DNA of 64,000 nucleotides from Candidatus Nealsonbacteria bacterium (GTDB lineage Bacteria > Patescibacteriota > Minisyncoccia > Minisyncoccales > MHMH01), in contig JBDRKR010000020.1 in the NCBI GenBank assembly GCA_043813805.1, positions 3,130-67,129 of the forward strand. The letters are read 5' to 3'. Shown here in pieces: positions 9,001 through 15,000 of the stretch; the first letter of the stretch is position 1; every line of letters begins with the position of its first letter. Position numbers: made by a program.

Positions 9001-12000
9001 ACTTTTCGGCAAGGCACGGGCCAAAATCATTACGGCCATTGCCATGTTCTATGATCTGGATGACCCCAATAAGTTTGTTGCCGGTGTCGGCCAATGTTTG
9101 GACGAAAAGGGAGTTTTCATCATTCAAATGAGTTATCTGCCATCCATGCTCCGGCAAAACGCTTTTGATAATATTTGTCACGAACACGTAGAATATTATT
9201 CGCTCGCCTCTTTGGAGAACCTTTTAGAAAGGCATAAATTGGAAGTGTTTGACGTTGAATTAAATGATGTTAACGGAGGAAGCTTCCGGGTTTATATCCA
9301 GCACAAGGGGCAAAGGCCCGTTAAAAACAGCGTAGCGCGGTTAAGGAAATTTGAAAAAAAACTTAAGCTTCTTGATAAGAAAACTTACAAAGATTTTGCC
9401 TCCAGGGTAATCTCTTTGGGAAAAAAACTTTCAAGCTTCATTAAAAAAGAAGTTAAAAGCGGCAAAAAGGTTTATGTTTACGGCGCTTCAACAAAGGGCA
9501 ATACCCTTCTGCAATTTTATAATTTAGACCGCACCCTGATTAAGGCGGCAGCCGAACGGAATCCTAAAAAGTGGGGGAAAAAGACCGTGGCCACCCTAAT
9601 CCCCATTATTTCTGAAGAGCAGGCCAGGGGAGAGCATCCGGATTATTTTCTTATCCTCCCGTGGCACTTTCTTAAAGAATTCATCCGAAGGGAACGGAAT
9701 TATCTTCAAGCGGGGGGAAAATTCATTGTTCCGTTGCCGGATTTCAAGATTATCGGCCGTAAGGATTTATAATGCCCATGAAAGACGTCATCGTCATCCC
9801 GACCTACAATGAAAGGAAAAACATAGGGGAAATGATAAGGATTATTTCTTCGCTTTTGCCCTCCGCCTATATATTAGTAGTTGATGATAATTCACCGGAC
9901 GGGACAGCCCGCGAGGTGGAGGAATTAAAGAAGGAAAATCCCCATCTGGAATTATTGCTCCGGTCCAAAAAGGAAGGATTGAAAAGGGCTTATTTCGCAG
10001 CTTTCGAAAAACTCTTGCTCGATAAAGATGTCCGTTCTTTGTGTACATTTGATGCCGATTTTTCTCATAACCCGCGCTATTTGCCGGAAGTGCTTTCTCA
10101 AATTGATAAATTTGATGTGGTCGTCGGATCAAGGCACGCCCAAGGCGGCAGGGCCGAGGGGCTGCCGTTTTACCGCAAACTCGAAAGCAAGATAGCTAAT
10201 TTTTATTTCCGGACGATTCTCCGTCTGCCCCTCAGGGATTGCACCAGCGGTTTCATGTGCGTGAAGACCGCTCTTCTCAGGAAGGTCGATTTAAAAAAGA
10301 TAGATTCGCTCGGCTTCGTCTTTTCGATGGAATTGAAGTATTTCCTTTGGAAGAAAGGAGCTTCTTTTAAAGAAATTCCCATTGTTCTTGAAAATCGGAG
10401 AGAAGGGGAGTCTAAGATAACGTTGGGCATTATTTTAGAAGGAATTTTTGCGCCCTGGAGACTGATTTTCAAAAATTGTATCAGAAAAATCAACAGCGTG
10501 CTTACGGTAATCAAAGACGCCTATAAAAAAAGAGGAATTCGTTATATAATTCATTATGGGCCGAAAGTTTTTTACCGTACCTACCTTGAAAGAAATAAAA
10601 AGTTTTTTACCTTTCGTTCCGAAAGATACAGCTATTTCCATCACCCGTACAACTGTACTTGTCTTAACGAGCGGGCCGTTGAAATTCCGATTGTCTGGAA
10701 GGTTGTGAAAGATTGCCAAAATAAAAAAATCCTCGAGGTGGGCAACGTTCTTTCTCACTATTTTCCCCATCAGCACGATATCGTCGATAAGTATGAAAAA
10801 TCCGGGGACGTCATCAATCAGGACGTTGTTGATTTCGAACCTTCAGAGAAATACGACCTGATCGTGAGTATCTCGACGTTAGAGCACGTAGGTTTTGACG
10901 AGGAGCTGAAAGACCCCCAAAAAATCATTTATGCTCTTAAAAATTTGCAAAACTGTCTTGTCCCGGGCGGCAAGATAGTCGTGACTCTGCCGCTTGGCTA
11001 CAATCCCGAAATGGATGATTTATTAATTAAAGGCCGCATCCCGTTTGCCAAACAATACTTTTTGAAAAAAATTTCCGGCGGGGATGAATGGAAAGAGGTA
11101 AATCAGGAGGAGGTCCGGGGCATTAAATACAATACTTCTGGCTGGAGCGCGCAGGGGTTGGTGATCGGCACCATCGGCGATATTTTTTAAAACTTAATTT
11201 TATGTATCAAATTATTCTTATTTTAATCATACCTATTTTTACGGCCGCCGTCGCCCAGCTTCTTTTTAAAAGGGGGATTTCGGGTTTGGGGATGGGGAAT
11301 TTAGACTTTTCGATTTCCGGCGTTATTTCGCTGATTCCCCGGATTTTGCAGTCGGGCTGGCTGATCGGCGGGATGATACTGTTCGGGATAAGTTTTTTGG
11401 TTTATCTTTTTGCCCTGGCCAAGTTCCAGCTGAACATTGCTTATCCGATTTTTGTCAGCGCCGGCATTATTTTGATAACCTCGGCTTCCTGGTTTTTGTT
11501 TAAAGAAACTCTTTCCTGGCCGCAGATTTTCGGGATTCTTATTATTATCTTCGGCATATTTTTACTGGCGACCAAAGGTTAAATAAATGTCAGGTCAATT
11601 TTCAGAAATATTTTCAAAAAATTGGTTTGCTGTTTTTAGTTTAACCTCTCTTTTATTATTTCAGTTAATTTTAAGTTTTATATTTCCCGCCTGCGGTTTA
11701 AACGACAGTTGGCAGCCGGTCGGTACGTATCTCCCCAAGTTTACCGTTGAGTCCGCCGATAACCTCATTTTGGGGAAGGTTTACCCTCTTATTTCCTCAG
11801 AATACCGTTTAAATAGCGATGTGGGGCACTATTTGGAGCTTGCCCGAAATTTTAACCCCGAAGTCATCAAGGGCCACGTTCTTCTCGACCGTCCCCTTTA
11901 TTCTTTTTTAATTTATCTGGGATCCTTGCCAGCGCGTCTTTTTACGGATCCTTCTTACGGCACAATATTCGGCTTCGCAATTTTGGTCAATTTTATTCTG

Positions 12001-15000
12001 CTGGGACTGGCGGTCATTTTATTTTTTCGGCTTCTTAAAAACCTGTTTTCTTCAAAAGTGGCCTGGCTTTCCTCGATTTTGCTTATTTTTTCTCCGTTCG
12101 TGCATACTTTCTTGGTTCAGCCGAGAGCTGAAATGCTGACTGCTTTTACGGTCGTTTTAAGCTGTTATCTTTTATATAATTACGTCAAAAGGGCTTCGGT
12201 TTTGAAATTGGTGATTTTTTCACTGGTTATCGGCGTTTTAATGCTGGGGAAGATGTTTTTTGCCGTCGCCATCTTCATCCTGTTATTGGGCGTCTTTTTT
12301 AAGCGCCACAAAGAAGCCTTTATTTTTCTGATCATCCATTTAATTCCTCTCGGTTTGTGGTACCTTTGGGTGACAAAAGTGTGGCAAATTCCTTATTACG
12401 CCCATGACGTTCAGTATTACCAGGGAGGAATTTTTTTACTTAACGTCTTTCAATGGCCCTGGTACCGGACTTTTCAAACAATTTTAACGGCTTTGCCCAA
12501 TTTTATCAGCGGCCTGATTTACAGCTTTGTTTTGGTTCCGGTGATCTTTTCCGTAATCGGGTTCCGGAAATTAATCTTTAAATCAAAAAACATATTTTAT
12601 TTCGGCTCTATTTTTTCCGTGTTTCTTTTCTGTTTCCTGGTGAATATTTACTACTACCGCATCATTTTTTTATTATTTCCCGTCATTTACCTTACGGCCG
12701 TTCTGGGAATGGAGGAAGCGGCCGACCGTCTCAAAAGATACCGGCCCTGGTTAGCCCCGCTTTTTTATGTTATAATTATTAGCCTGATAACATTTGTTTC
12801 AAGCATCAATATTTATCGGGTTTTTGATTACAGCGCTTAAAATTTCAATGAAAATATTAATCACCGGCAGTTCCGGCCTTATCGGCTCTGCCTTAAAAGA
12901 TTTTTTGGAAAAACAGGATGTCGAAGTCATCCTTTACGATTTAAAAGATAATCCTCCGAATGATACGAGGAATTTTTCCGATTTGAAAGAAAAGATGAGC
13001 GGGGCGGACGGGGTCGTCCATTTGGCGGCCGTCAGCCGGGTTATCGCGGCTTTTAATGATCCTTTGGAATGCATCAATACCAACGTGGGGGGAACGATTA
13101 ACGTGCTTGAGGCGGCCAGGGTCGGGAACCGGCCCTGGGTGATTTTCGGTTCTTCCCGCGAAGTTTTTGGCGAGTCCCGCCCCTTGCCGGTTACCGAAGA
13201 AACTCCTTGTCATCCCATGAATGTTTATGGCATTGCCAAAATTGCCGGCGAAGACCTGTGCAAGATTTTTTCCAGAGATTACGGCTTAAAGACGAGAACT
13301 TTGAGGTTTTCCAACGTTTATACGGGCCCCCGCGACCAATTAGACAGGGTAATTCCTAAGTTCATTCTTCAAGCCGCTAAGAACGAAGATATAATTATTA
13401 ACGGAACGGGCGAAGAGCTTTTTGATTTTACTTATCTTCAGGATACCATCCAGGGGATTTGGGGATGCATTCAGGAAATACAAAAGAGCCAGAAACCTTA
13501 CGATGATTTTATTCTGGCGACGGGCGTTCCCACCTCTTTGCGCGAATTGGCCGATCTTATCATCAAAATATTATCCAGCAAAAGCGAAATTAAACACACT
13601 CGGGGCCGTTCTTACGACGTTAATAAGTTTTATGCCGATCCGGCCAAAGCCAGGCAAATTCTCGGGTTTGATCCCAAAACCGGTTTAAAGGAAGGTATTA
13701 TAAAGGCGATTCAAGAGTTTAAAGAAGAAAAAATAATTTAAAAGAATGACGCAGACCCCCTTACTTTTAGCGCTTTGTATCTTAATAACCGTTACCGCCA
13801 ACCTTTTCGTCAAAAAAGGGATTTTAATTTTGGGGAATTTAGAGCTTTCTTTTTCTAATTTTTTGGGGTTAATCCCCAGGGTTTTACAAAATGTTTGGCT
13901 GATGGCGGGGCTGTTTTTATCCGGCACCGCTTTTCTTTTGTGGCTCTTTCTCGTATCCAAGCTTCAATTGAATATTGCTTACCCGATTGTCGTCAGCCTC
14001 AATTTATGCTTCATTGTTATCGCCTCCTGGTTTCTGTTCAAAGAATATCTTTCCCTGTTCCAGGTTTTAGGAATTGTCATCGTGATTATCGGGGTATTGG
14101 TGGTCTCGCAAAAAGGCCCGATGTAAAATGCCAATGAAACCAATAATTTTAGGCGGAGGTCTGGCCGGTCTTTCTCTCGCCCATTTTTTAAATAAAGATT
14201 CAATTGTCTTGGAAAAAGAAAAAACTCCGGGCGGTTTATGCAGGAGTTTTAATTTTAACGGAGTTTTTCATGATATCGGAGGGCATATCATGTTTTCTAA
14301 AAATAAAGAAATACTGGACTTGCTGACATCTCTTGCAAAAACCAACAGAATCAGAAGGTCCAACAAAATATATCATCGGGGCAGAATAGTCAAATATCCC
14401 TTTGAAAACGATCTGGCCGGTTTAAACGACGAAGATAAGGAATATTGCCTTAAAACATTTTTGCGCAATCCTCACAAGAACAGCCGGCCGCAGAACATGC
14501 TTCAATTTTTCCTTAAAACATTCGGCGAGGGCATCACGAGGCTATATTTACAACCGTATAACCAGAAGATATGGAAATTTGATCCGGCGCTCATGGATAC
14601 GCAAATGGTGGAAAGAATTCCCAAACCCCCCAGAAAAGATATTATAAAATCAGCCCGAGGTATCGAGACCGAAGGATATCTTCATCAGCTGTTTTTCCAC
14701 TATCCGAAGGCCGGCGGTATTCAGCAGATTATCAGTGCTTTTTTAAAATTTATCGCCAAGAAATCACAAGTTGTCTGTCCTGCCGGGATCAGAAGAATTT
14801 ATAAGGAAAAAGGAATTTGGCAGGTAGTCACCAGTAAGGGTCGTTTCAGCTCAAGATCCCTGATCAATTGCCTGCCGCTCCATGAACTTTTCAAGTATCT
14901 CAATGCTCCCAAGAATATCATAAAAGCGCTTAATGAGCTGAAATATAATTCAATATATATTATTGCCGTGCAGGCAAAAAAAGACAATATTGGCGATAAT

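Follow-up and report, generated by a model that had tools for sequence, protein, structure and literature searches.

This report is focused on a candidate extracytoplasmic glycosylation system encoded in a 64-kb window (the whole stretch of DNA analyzed) of a metagenome-assembled genome of Candidatus Nealsonbacteria, which belongs to the Parcubacteria within the candidate phyla radiation (CPR) and whose locus tags carry the prefix ABIG29_ and run, in the window, from about ABIG29_02215 to beyond ABIG29_02420. The system comprises three consecutive genes, hereafter the trio, which are designated, like all other genes, by the first of their window positions: 9772 (472 amino acids, aa), 11202 (126 aa), and 11587 (417 aa), separated by gaps of 11 nt and 4 nt, respectively (Table 1). 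The window is tiled to 97% by 59 coding open reading frames (ORFs), nearly all on the plus strand, and operon packing is tight, with genes overlapping or nearly abutting; terminator-like sites occur at chance level in a promoter and terminator scan, no tRNA was found in a tRNA scan of the window, and the GC content is approximately 42% outside the 454-1747 stretch. The contig runs past the window at both ends, where ORFs are cut, and 5.5 kb of its 69,534 bp lie outside. The gene content includes three GT4, one GT9, and three GT2 glycosyltransferases, three GT-C-type membrane proteins, a GDP-mannose 4,6-dehydratase (Gmd), several SDR epimerases, many methyltransferases, one carbamoyltransferase, two heptose-nucleotide pathways, and 12 B12-binding radical SAM genes, and the whole window is a single glycan-biosynthesis region. 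The Pfam scan covered all window ORFs of at least 100 aa. For comparison, 15 other loci from relatives (denoted by L numbers), holding 17 orthologous GT-C copies, were annotated with profiles built from the window proteins and with precomputed Pfam tables.

Table 1. Coordinates and assignments of the features discussed in the window and, in the last row, in related loci.
Feature	Position	Strand	Assignment
GT2-methyltransferase fusion	9772..11190	+	Candidate DPM1/DPMS-type polyprenyl-phosphate sugar synthase; GT2 domain aa 1-240, class-I methyltransferase-like domain aa ~255-472
SMR-like protein	11202..11582	+	SMR/DMT-superfamily protein with four transmembrane (TM) helices, candidate flippase for lipid-linked sugar
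GT-C of the trio	11587..12840	+	Compact GT-C glycosyltransferase without large soluble domain; Asp78, in outer loop 1, as candidate catalytic residue
Gmd	7432..8481	+	GDP-mannose 4,6-dehydratase; TIGR01472 502 bits (cut-off 415, equivalog level); PF16363 4e-132
3-C-methyltransferase	8492..9772	+	NDP-4-keto-6-deoxyhexose 3-C-methyltransferase (TylC3/TcaB9 type); Pfam Methyltransf_13/14
SDR protein	12848..13741	+	SDR-family NDP-sugar epimerase/reductase; PF01370 3e-47
Second GT2	5635..6348	+	DPMS/ArnC/GtrB-like GT2 without TM helix; PF00535 1e-33
Second GT-C	6335..7408	+	GT-C-like membrane protein; PMT_2 43.8 bits (cut-off 26.1); ~9-10 TM helices
Second SMR-like protein	13746..14126	+	Four-TM SMR/EamA-like paralogue; its type is single-copy in relatives
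Flavoenzyme	14128..15423	+	Resembles UDP-galactopyranose mutase; NAD_binding_8 and weak GLF match
Third GT2	15423..16157	+	Generic GT2; PF00535 4e-18
Third GT-C	41217..43259	+	GT-C-fold membrane protein, 680 aa, ~12 TM helices and 155-aa C-terminal soluble domain
Methyltransferase-like ORF	1748..2329	+	Paralogue, encoded on its own, of the methyltransferase-like part of 9772; large family, labelled SAM-dependent methyltransferase by some sources
AT-rich stretch	454..1747		Syntenic site of the Wzy_C+TPR ligase-like gene of relatives; here 1.3 kb, GC 35.7%
GT2-methyltransferase fusions in relatives	L003:6424-7983; L016:8344-9903; L015:625-2320; L006:8596-10002		Two unrelated methyltransferase domain types

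The proteins of the trio

The GT2 domain of 9772 matches PF00535 (5e-21, aa 7-171), and its closest solved homologue in a PDB sequence search is the DPMS of P. furiosus (5mlz, 5e-29, aa 3-231), followed by ArnC and GtrB. The alignment with the P. furiosus enzyme spans residues 23-246 and includes the 'DAD' motif, in keeping with the architecture of DPM1/DPMS enzymes, namely a GT-A catalytic domain with a DxD motif and, after it, an interface-helix region; the 'FDADFSHNP' motif of 9772 resembles that of DPM1. The top NCBIfam matches, namely AglJ, PpgS, ArnC, and PgfS, are all polyprenyl-phosphate sugar synthases, and all score under the equivalog cut-offs (34 bits for ArnC, with a cut-off of 529). 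TM helices were predicted in none of the three GT2 proteins (9772, 5635, and 15423), and no DPM3- or Ppm2-like membrane partner of 9772 was recognized, the neighboring four-TM protein 11202 being a possible substitute. An earlier note on this DNA, which was made from the sequence alone, had taken 9772 for a Dpm1/ArnC-type GT2; this assignment stands, although the note overlooked that the protein has two domains. The C-terminal part shows weak Pfam matches to class-I methyltransferase families (aa 324-409) and is 53% identical over 173 aa to the stand-alone ORF 1748. In relatives, the fused methyltransferase is either of the 1748 type, as in the window and L006, or consists of a zinc-ribbon and a canonical SAM methyltransferase (L003, L015, and L016; the L015 fusion looks split or frameshifted). 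Two independent fusions with unrelated methyltransferase types suggest that methylation is functionally coupled to lipid charging by the DPM1-like synthase, a coupling of which no description was found in the papers searched.

The second component, 11202, matches PF00893 at 40 bits (gathering cut-off 23.7) as well as EamA; the protein is of the SMR/DMT type, and a match to the GtrA family (PF04138) is absent. Its paralogue 13746, which is 50% identical to it, matches EamA at 30 bits (cut-off 28.2) and PF00893 at 21 bits, under the cut-off, and shares 54-55% identity with the single-copy genes of L006 and L009. ArnF is the best NCBIfam match of both proteins (1.6e-11 for 11202 and 2.1e-10 for 13746), at scores of 44.7 and 41.1 bits that lie below the cut-off of 99, and the ArnE scores of 27.6 and 30.9 bits likewise compare with a cut-off of 92. 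Alignment of 11202 with EmrE spans only TM2-TM4 (3e-6). EmrE-type SMR antiporters were considered as its family: PF00893 is matched, but the membrane-embedded glutamate of TM1, equivalent to E14 of EmrE, is not found, and 11202 and its 12 homologues all lack an acidic residue in TM1. An EmrE-type drug/H+ antiporter role is unlikely because this glutamate is missing in all 13 proteins. Regarding assembly, 11202 and 13746 both have a lysine plus arginine bias of +2, that is, of the same sign and without the signature of a fixed antiparallel pair, and several relatives carry one SMR-like copy within the approximately 10 kb examined on each side. A homodimer would therefore suffice, and nothing in the window points to a fixed antiparallel heterodimer. 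The GT-C gene has an SMR-like gene on either side in L007 and L010, with biases of +6/-1 and +4/0, and paired use may occur in such lineages.

The third component, 11587, matches PF13231 (PMT_2) at 31.1 bits (cut-off 26.1), and PMT_2 is detected in 26 of 36 members of its family. An AlphaFold model built with 30 homologues is all-helical (predicted local distance difference test, pLDDT, 87.4; predicted template modeling score, pTM, 0.89), and the best 35 matches of this model in a Foldseek search of the PDB are all GT-C enzymes, comprising STT3, AglB, PglB, ALG9/12, ArnT, AftA, Emb, PMT, and DPY19; the GT-C-like character claimed in the earlier note, which proposed a comparison with ArnT, PglB, and PMT, is upheld. 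Residues D78, R102, P103, and G216 are invariant in an alignment that reaches down to 15% identity, and Asp78 is predicted by the positive-inside rule to lie outside the cell, in the long first outer loop. The catalytic acid of GT-C enzymes is located in the first outer loop, and Asp78 is likely the catalytic residue of 11587. The name given by the prokaryotic genome annotation pipeline (PGAP), a GT39 protein O-mannosyltransferase, was rejected: only PF13231 is matched, and not the PF02366 core, which in that family is joined by a lumenal MIR domain or a large loop 5, and the 417 aa include no soluble domain. The family is small, with 402 cluster representatives among 1.84 billion at E<=1e-3, and the recovered loci are nearly all labelled Nealsonbacteria, Parcubacteria, Patescibacteria, or (uncultured) Saccharibacteria. 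The only GT-C homologue found outside the CPR is on L018 (NZAZ01000063.1; 36% identity), an 8.4-kb contig binned as Rhodospirillaceae, which may be mis-binned.

The gene order proposed previously, i.e., a Dpm1/ArnC-type GT2, an ArnE/F-like four-TM protein, and a GT-C-like protein, is exact in its coordinates and is borne out by Pfam, fold, and synteny alike. Of the Pfam families suggested for searching, PF00535 was recovered in 9772, 5635, and 15423, PF00893 in 11202, EamA in 11202 and 13746, and PF13231 in 11587 and 6335.

Precursor genes and conservation in relatives

The genes directly around the trio encode a probable route to a modified 6-deoxyhexose (Table 1). Gmd is recognized at equivalog level. 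The best PDB matches of 8492 are the D-mycarose 3-C-methyltransferase (4rv9, 1.6e-63) and TcaB9 (2e-44), and in L003, L006, L015, and L016, too, the GT2-methyltransferase fusion is immediately preceded by a 3-C-methyltransferase gene. Downstream of the trio, 12848 has NCBIfam matches to 4,6-dehydratase, GalE, and GDP-fucose synthase, all under cut-off, and is likely the 4-ketoreductase or epimerase of the 6-deoxyhexose route.

The trio arrangement recurs beyond chance. A DPMS-like GT2 gene is located at most 3 kb upstream of the GT-C gene in 15 of the 17 orthologous copies, and in the other two the GT2 gene lies 1 kb downstream or the contig ends. The SMR-like gene adjoins the GT-C gene in 8 of the 17 copies and sits between GT2 and GT-C in L007, L010, and L014. 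Nearly all orthologous GT-C copies are adjoined by Gmd, epimerase, or (3-)C-methyltransferase genes, an epimerase gene being present in most relatives. Two architectures recur, one running from Gmd or epimerase through a short GT2 and the SMR-like gene to the GT-C gene, and the other from a 3-C-methyltransferase through a GT2-methyltransferase fusion to the GT-C gene, mostly without an SMR-like gene in between; the window combines both.

Proposed mechanism, comparable systems, and alternatives

The trio may act in the following manner. Gmd, which would supply a GDP-4-keto-6-deoxyhexose precursor, together with the 3-C-methyltransferase 8492 and the SDR protein 12848, would convert GDP-mannose into a C-branched GDP-6-deoxyhexose; because the Gmd and C-methyltransferase genes adjoin the trio, such a derivative, rather than GDP-mannose, is the probable donor. 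Homology suggests that the TM-less DPM1-like domain of 9772 would load this sugar on polyprenyl phosphate at the inner membrane face, and the fused domain, with its weak family matches, would probably add a further methyl group. By analogy with ArnE/F and a Citrobacter youngae system (PMC11127046), 11202 would then flip the polyprenyl-phosphate sugar, probably as a dimer. Finally, fold and topology suggest that 11587, through its putative catalytic residue Asp78, would hand the sugar to an acceptor glycan at the outer face. The acceptor would most likely be a heptose-containing oligosaccharide produced by the GT4 and GT9 enzymes of the operon, either still membrane-anchored or after attachment to the envelope, and a membrane-anchored glycan is favored since 11587, like PimE and the ALG enzymes, has no soluble domain. 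The domain identities, the GT-C folds, the topology, the conserved residues, and the linkage of the genes are results of the analysis, whereas the identity of the sugar, its methylation, the flipping, the acceptor, and the sites that encode priming and final attachment are inferred. The earlier interpretation of the trio as performing synthesis, flipping, and extracytoplasmic transfer is supported by homology, fold, and conserved synteny, and we assign a probability of about 0.7 to the reading that the trio is a three-component module for extracytoplasmic glycosylation, working by the steps outlined above, within a very large surface-glycan operon.

There are established three-component systems that use a GT-C and a four-TM flippase resembling EmrE or ArnE (PMC11127046), and the trio, according to homology and structural models, exhibits every testable defining feature of systems of the Gtr, Arn, and CsbB-GtcA-YfhO kind. 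In GtrA/GtrB/GtrC-dependent O-antigen glucosylation and in the pentofuranose system ORF15/ORF14/ORF12 of C. youngae (PMC11127046), as in the window, a lipid-phosphate sugar synthase, a small four-TM flippase candidate, and a GT-C are encoded together and act on an extracytoplasmic glycan, and the flippase candidate of C. youngae is EmrE/ArnE-like (PMC11127046). By contrast, GtrB has two TM helices and the C. youngae synthase is a UbiA-like phosphoribosyltransferase, whereas the window synthase is a TM-less DPM1-like GT2 with a methyltransferase-like domain. Moreover, the flippase candidate of the window lies outside the GtrA family (PF04138), the GT-C belongs to a small CPR-restricted family, the module resides in a Gram-positive-like CPR bacterium, and the probable sugar is a GDP-derived C-methyl 6-deoxyhexose. 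The ArnC/ArnE-ArnF/ArnT system, which attaches 4-amino-4-deoxy-L-arabinose (Ara4N) to lipid A, has the same gene order and logic; ArnF is the best named match of both 126-aa proteins and ArnC the second-best solved homologue of the GT2. The designation 'Arn-like' in the earlier note is accordingly apt for the architecture but not for membership in the pathway: Arn equivalog cut-offs are not reached, no ArnT/PF02366 match is found, and the formyltransferase, DegT aminotransferase, and deformylase genes for the precursor (ArnA, ArnB, and ArnD) are absent from the window. Furthermore, the window GT-C has no periplasmic domain, the window precursor genes would make a 6-deoxyhexose rather than Ara4N, and the window shows no sign of a lipid A pathway.

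Other systems share parts of this scheme. Mycobacterial Ppm1 with PimE/Mpt, which act in the synthesis of phosphatidylinositol mannosides, lipomannan, and lipoarabinomannan (PIM/LM/LAM), and PpgS with Rv3779 likewise combine a TM-less DPMS-like synthase with a GT-C that uses polyprenyl-phosphate sugars; there, too, compact GT-Cs act on membrane-anchored glycans and cytoplasmic GT4 enzymes belong to the same pathway, but the sequence relation is distant, and the window has a dedicated SMR-like gene and a different sugar. The archaeal AglD/AglR/AglS and AglJ proteins of the Haloferax N-glycan and eukaryotic DPM1 with ALG3/9/12 share DPMS-type charging and the addition of a sugar by a GT-C to an assembled oligosaccharide on the outer or lumenal side. 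AglJ is the top NCBIfam match of the window GT2, at scores far below the equivalog cut-offs; however, the flippase in those systems, where known, is Wzx-like (AglR), and dolichol serves as the carrier. The Gram-positive systems CsbB/GtcA/YfhO and GacI/GacJ/GacK/GacL and the PgfS/PgfM pair of S. mutans (PMC8035078, PMC7389260) are similarly multi-component and act on wall polymers or adhesins of monoderms, and PgfS is among the best matches of 5635; their flippases are of the GtrA or Wzx type and their GT-Cs of the YfhO or GacL types, and no sequence-level membership of the window proteins in these groups was found. Nothing specific on glycosylation systems of Nealsonbacteria or the CPR was found in the literature searched.

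How the presumed acceptor glycan is primed and exported bears on the alternatives. Among the 59 window ORFs, no match was found to Bac_transf, Glycos_transf_4 (WecA/MraY), Polysacc_synt (Wzx), Wzy_C, or ABC families, and the previously noted absence of a priming transferase, a Wzx/Wzy pair, and an ABC exporter, to which a ligase can be added, therefore holds within the 64 kb. Relatives do carry such genes near the orthologous trio: in L005, a stretch of 17 kb encodes the trio together with an MsbA-type ABC transporter, a Bac_transf protein of 458 aa, and a Wzy_C-TPR protein; a small PglC-like Bac_transf protein is encoded 5-6 kb downstream of the trio in L003 and L015; and in L001 and L021, which are collinear with the window, a Wzy_C-TPR gene (751 aa in L021) stands between two methyltransferase genes. 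Both flanking genes are retained in the window, since positions 1-453 are 71% identical to the upstream methyltransferase of L021 and 1748 is the downstream gene, whereas the equivalent site holds the AT-rich stretch 454-1747 with two small ORFs without family match (725-991, two TM helices; 1079-1618, five TM helices). A tblastn search with two Wzy_C-TPR proteins found no match anywhere in the window, and the two small ORFs were accordingly rejected as remnants of such a gene. A terminator-like hairpin (1680-1694) and a promoter-like site (1708-1735) are located at the end of this stretch, ahead of the long operon. The presence of both flanking genes without any Wzy_C similarity indicates that the ligase-like gene has been lost or moved in this genome, which is compatible with decoration of an existing acceptor and with a lipid-primed route of the LM/LAM kind.

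In the former alternative, the genome would have no undecaprenyl-pyrophosphate (Und-PP) en bloc pathway for this glycan, and the GT2/flippase/GT-C modules would only decorate, as the earlier note concluded, an acceptor that is already in place, which could be a protein (S-layer or pilin), a wall polymer, or a lipid. The absence of phosphoglycosyltransferase (PGT), Wzx, Wzy, ligase, and ABC genes from a window that is 97% coding, the lack of the Wzy_C-TPR gene of the closest collinear relative at the same site, and two relatives in which these genes are likewise missing from the 10 kb on each side all fit this explanation. The three GT4 and one GT9 genes and the two heptose-nucleotide pathways nevertheless imply oligosaccharide assembly, which would be cytoplasmic and on some primer because these Leloir transferases need a primed acceptor; PGT, ABC transporter, and/or Wzy_C-TPR genes stand beside the orthologous trio in L003, L015, L005, and L001; and the absence concerns 64 kb only, with 5.5 kb of the contig and the remaining genome outside. 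The conclusion of the earlier note is hence partly supported but not established, and decoration alone is a tentative alternative, clearly less probable than the reading preferred above. Alternatively, GT4 and GT9 enzymes might glycosylate a membrane lipid, possibly scavenged from the host, which would be flipped and extended by the three GT-C enzymes from polyprenyl-phosphate sugars, without the need for a PGT, Wzx, Wzy, or ligase, as in the mycobacterial PIM/LM/LAM pathway. Such a route would account for the missing priming, export, and ligase genes and parallels the set of PimA/PimB (GT4), Ppm1 (TM-less DPMS-like GT2), and PimE/Mpt/Emb (GT-C); moreover, 11587 resembles PimE and the ALG enzymes, which act on lipid-linked acceptors, in having no soluble domain, and ALG9, ALG12, and PimE are among its fold matches. 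However, the trio of relatives is accompanied by genes for a PGT and a ligase-like protein, and the best fold matches are STT3 and AglB, with a probability of just 0.57 for PimE; this route is unlikely. Equally doubtful is a broader version, in which the DPM1-like synthase with its fused methyltransferase, next to Gmd and the 3-C-methyltransferase, would produce a new class of lipid-linked donor, a C-branched and O-methylated 6-deoxyhexose on polyprenyl phosphate. With two further GT2/GT-C modules and no primer, Wzx/Wzy, ABC, or ligase gene, the bacterium would then build its heptose-rich surface glycan, starting from a lipid or a protein, by an LM/LAM-like or ER-lumen-like route in place of the canonical Und-PP en bloc pathway.

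Two further alternatives concern individual proteins. The 126-aa proteins might be anchors or activators of the TM-less GT2s, as DPM3 is for DPM1 and GacJ for GacI, or unrelated SMR exporters of small molecules. A membrane partner is plausible given that all three GT2 proteins lack TM helices, and the SMR-like gene is missing beside many orthologous modules; against this stand the homology to SMR/DMT transporters, with ArnF and ArnE as the best named relatives, rather than to the DPM3 or GacJ families, the missing TM1 glutamate, which makes drug/H+ antiport unlikely, and the conserved placement between GT2 and GT-C, so that we regard this explanation as improbable, more so than the lipid-primed route. 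The least credible proposal, to which we attach very little weight, is that 11587, 41217, or both are oligosaccharyltransferases or polymerases with pyrophosphate-linked oligosaccharide donors that replace the missing Wzy_C ligase. STT3, AglB, and PglB are among the best folds, 41217 has a C-terminal soluble domain like oligosaccharyltransferases, and the syntenic site is without the ligase-like gene; yet in relatives both families go closely with DPMS-like GT2s, a pairing that is the hallmark of monosaccharide donors linked through phosphate, 11587 lacks a soluble domain, no WWDxG-type motif was seen in 41217 when its sequence was read by eye, and the window has no PGT to make a pyrophosphate-linked donor. 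Several observations also count against the preferred three-component module itself. About half of the orthologous GT-C copies, among them most of those with a GT2-methyltransferase fusion, have no SMR-like gene beside them; this gene is therefore either not obligatory or substituted by another flippase. In the methyltransferase-like domain of 9772, the canonical GxGxG loop is missing ('EVGNVLS'); this domain stays under the Pfam cut-offs and yielded no solved homologue when one was sought; the sequence profile of the 11587 family finds no match among PDB sequences, PMT included, and its fold matches have moderate TM-scores (0.45-0.59). In addition, NCBIfam matches to named enzymes are all far under the equivalog cut-offs, and the primer, exporter, and ligase for the presumed acceptor glycan are all absent from the window.

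Further modules and the surrounding cluster

A second module of the same kind is formed by 5635 and 6335, which overlap by 14 nt and are kept as a pair in L001, L006, and L015. The PDB matches of 5635 are DPMS (1.4e-18), ArnC (4e-14), and GtrB (3e-12), and its NCBIfam matches are AglJ (6e-32), PgfS, and PpgS; together with the PMT_2 match of 6335, these data confirm the coupling of a GT2 with a GT-C-like protein that the earlier note had described. The third GT-C, 41217, has no match in Pfam or NCBIfam, and its recognition as a GT-C, likewise anticipated, comes from the fold only: the AlphaFold model has a pLDDT of 84.2, and its best 13 Foldseek matches in the PDB are all GT-Cs (DPY19, AglB, STT3, AftA, PglB, ArnT, and AftD) at a probability of 1.0 and E-values down to 5e-6. 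Using hhalign, no significant relation of the 41217 family was found to the 11587 family or to a conserved unannotated protein of 580 aa. Unannotated proteins of 572-583 aa, similar in size and without Pfam match, are encoded at L019:15698-17440, L020:11317-13065, L005:14682-16433, and L022:19910-21628; the L005 copy directly follows the Wzy_C-TPR gene, and the L019 copy has no significant profile similarity to the 41217 family. The coupling of 41217 to the GDP-heptose genes, as described earlier, is present in the window as a 4-nt overlap with 39946, but this adjacency is not conserved, the homologue in relatives following amino-sugar genes or a GT2 gene instead, and a functional tie was rejected. 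At L023:9277-13081, the 680-aa GT-C homologue directly follows a 237-aa GT2 and precedes an LPG_synthase_TM protein (MprF-flippase-like, PF03706), which may be an alternative third component.

The gene order around the second SMR-like protein, previously described as lying next to an FAD enzyme and a GT2, is as stated. The FAD enzyme 14128 is UDP-galactopyranose-mutase-like, since all 19 of its PDB matches are such mutases (best match, T. cruzi 4dsg, 1e-29), whereas a Dpm1/ArnC-type identity is not evident for 15423: the best PDB matches of this protein are weak and of different kinds (chondroitin synthase, 4e-4; DPMS, 4e-3), and it was not retained as a third Dpm1-type synthase. This order (13746-16157) was not found in any related locus examined. 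The three genes could form a module for a lipid-linked hexofuranose donor, with a generic GT2.

The remainder of the window is rich in radical SAM and heptose genes. The 12 B12-binding radical SAM paralogues are distributed over 16157-63583 (16157, 17650, 19130, 20655, 23977 on the minus strand, 30148, 33931, 43204, 50960, 54088, 55719, and 62048), all with an intact CxxxCxxC motif, and their mutual identity of 20-48% indicates an old and diverged set rather than a recent amplification; three more radical SAM genes are located at 22929 (minus strand), 31655, and 59587 (SPASM domain). The clusters of relatives likewise carry B12-radical SAM genes, for which a role in sugar C-methylation is a possibility. 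A GDP-type heptose route lies in 37627-41220 (HddA-like kinase, GmhA-transaldolase fusion, and HddC-like nucleotidyltransferase-GmhB fusion), and an ADP-type route in 48453-50963 (GmhA, RfaE-domain-I kinase, and RfaE-domain-II adenylyltransferase-GmhB fusion), with the GT9 heptosyltransferase at 44616. Between the GT9/epimerase genes and GmhA, two proteins of 261 and 182 aa without family match are encoded (46750-48100), and L001 has ORFs of 281 and 181 aa without Pfam match at the same position. The main minus-strand block (22929-29805) encodes a radical SAM protein, a B12-radical SAM protein, a GDSL-like hydrolase, an SxtJ-like small membrane protein, a methyltransferase, and the NodU/CmcH-type carbamoyltransferase; the sole other minus-strand gene encodes a NUDIX protein (36928-37503).

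The trio follows an established mechanism and thus extends a known kind of system to an unstudied lineage rather than introducing a new principle; it varies this kind in two respects, namely the fusion of its TM-less synthase to a methyltransferase and the donor, which is probably a C-methyl 6-deoxyhexose. The surrounding cluster is more unusual than the trio itself. CPR/Patescibacteria live attached to host cells, and their envelopes are essentially uncharacterized. The three-component modules provide testable handles, namely a GDP-mannose-derived C-methyl 6-deoxyhexose as the probable donor, the putative catalytic residue Asp78, and a flippase candidate without the antiporter glutamate, in an organism in which at least 64 kb of a very small genome are given to one surface glycan.

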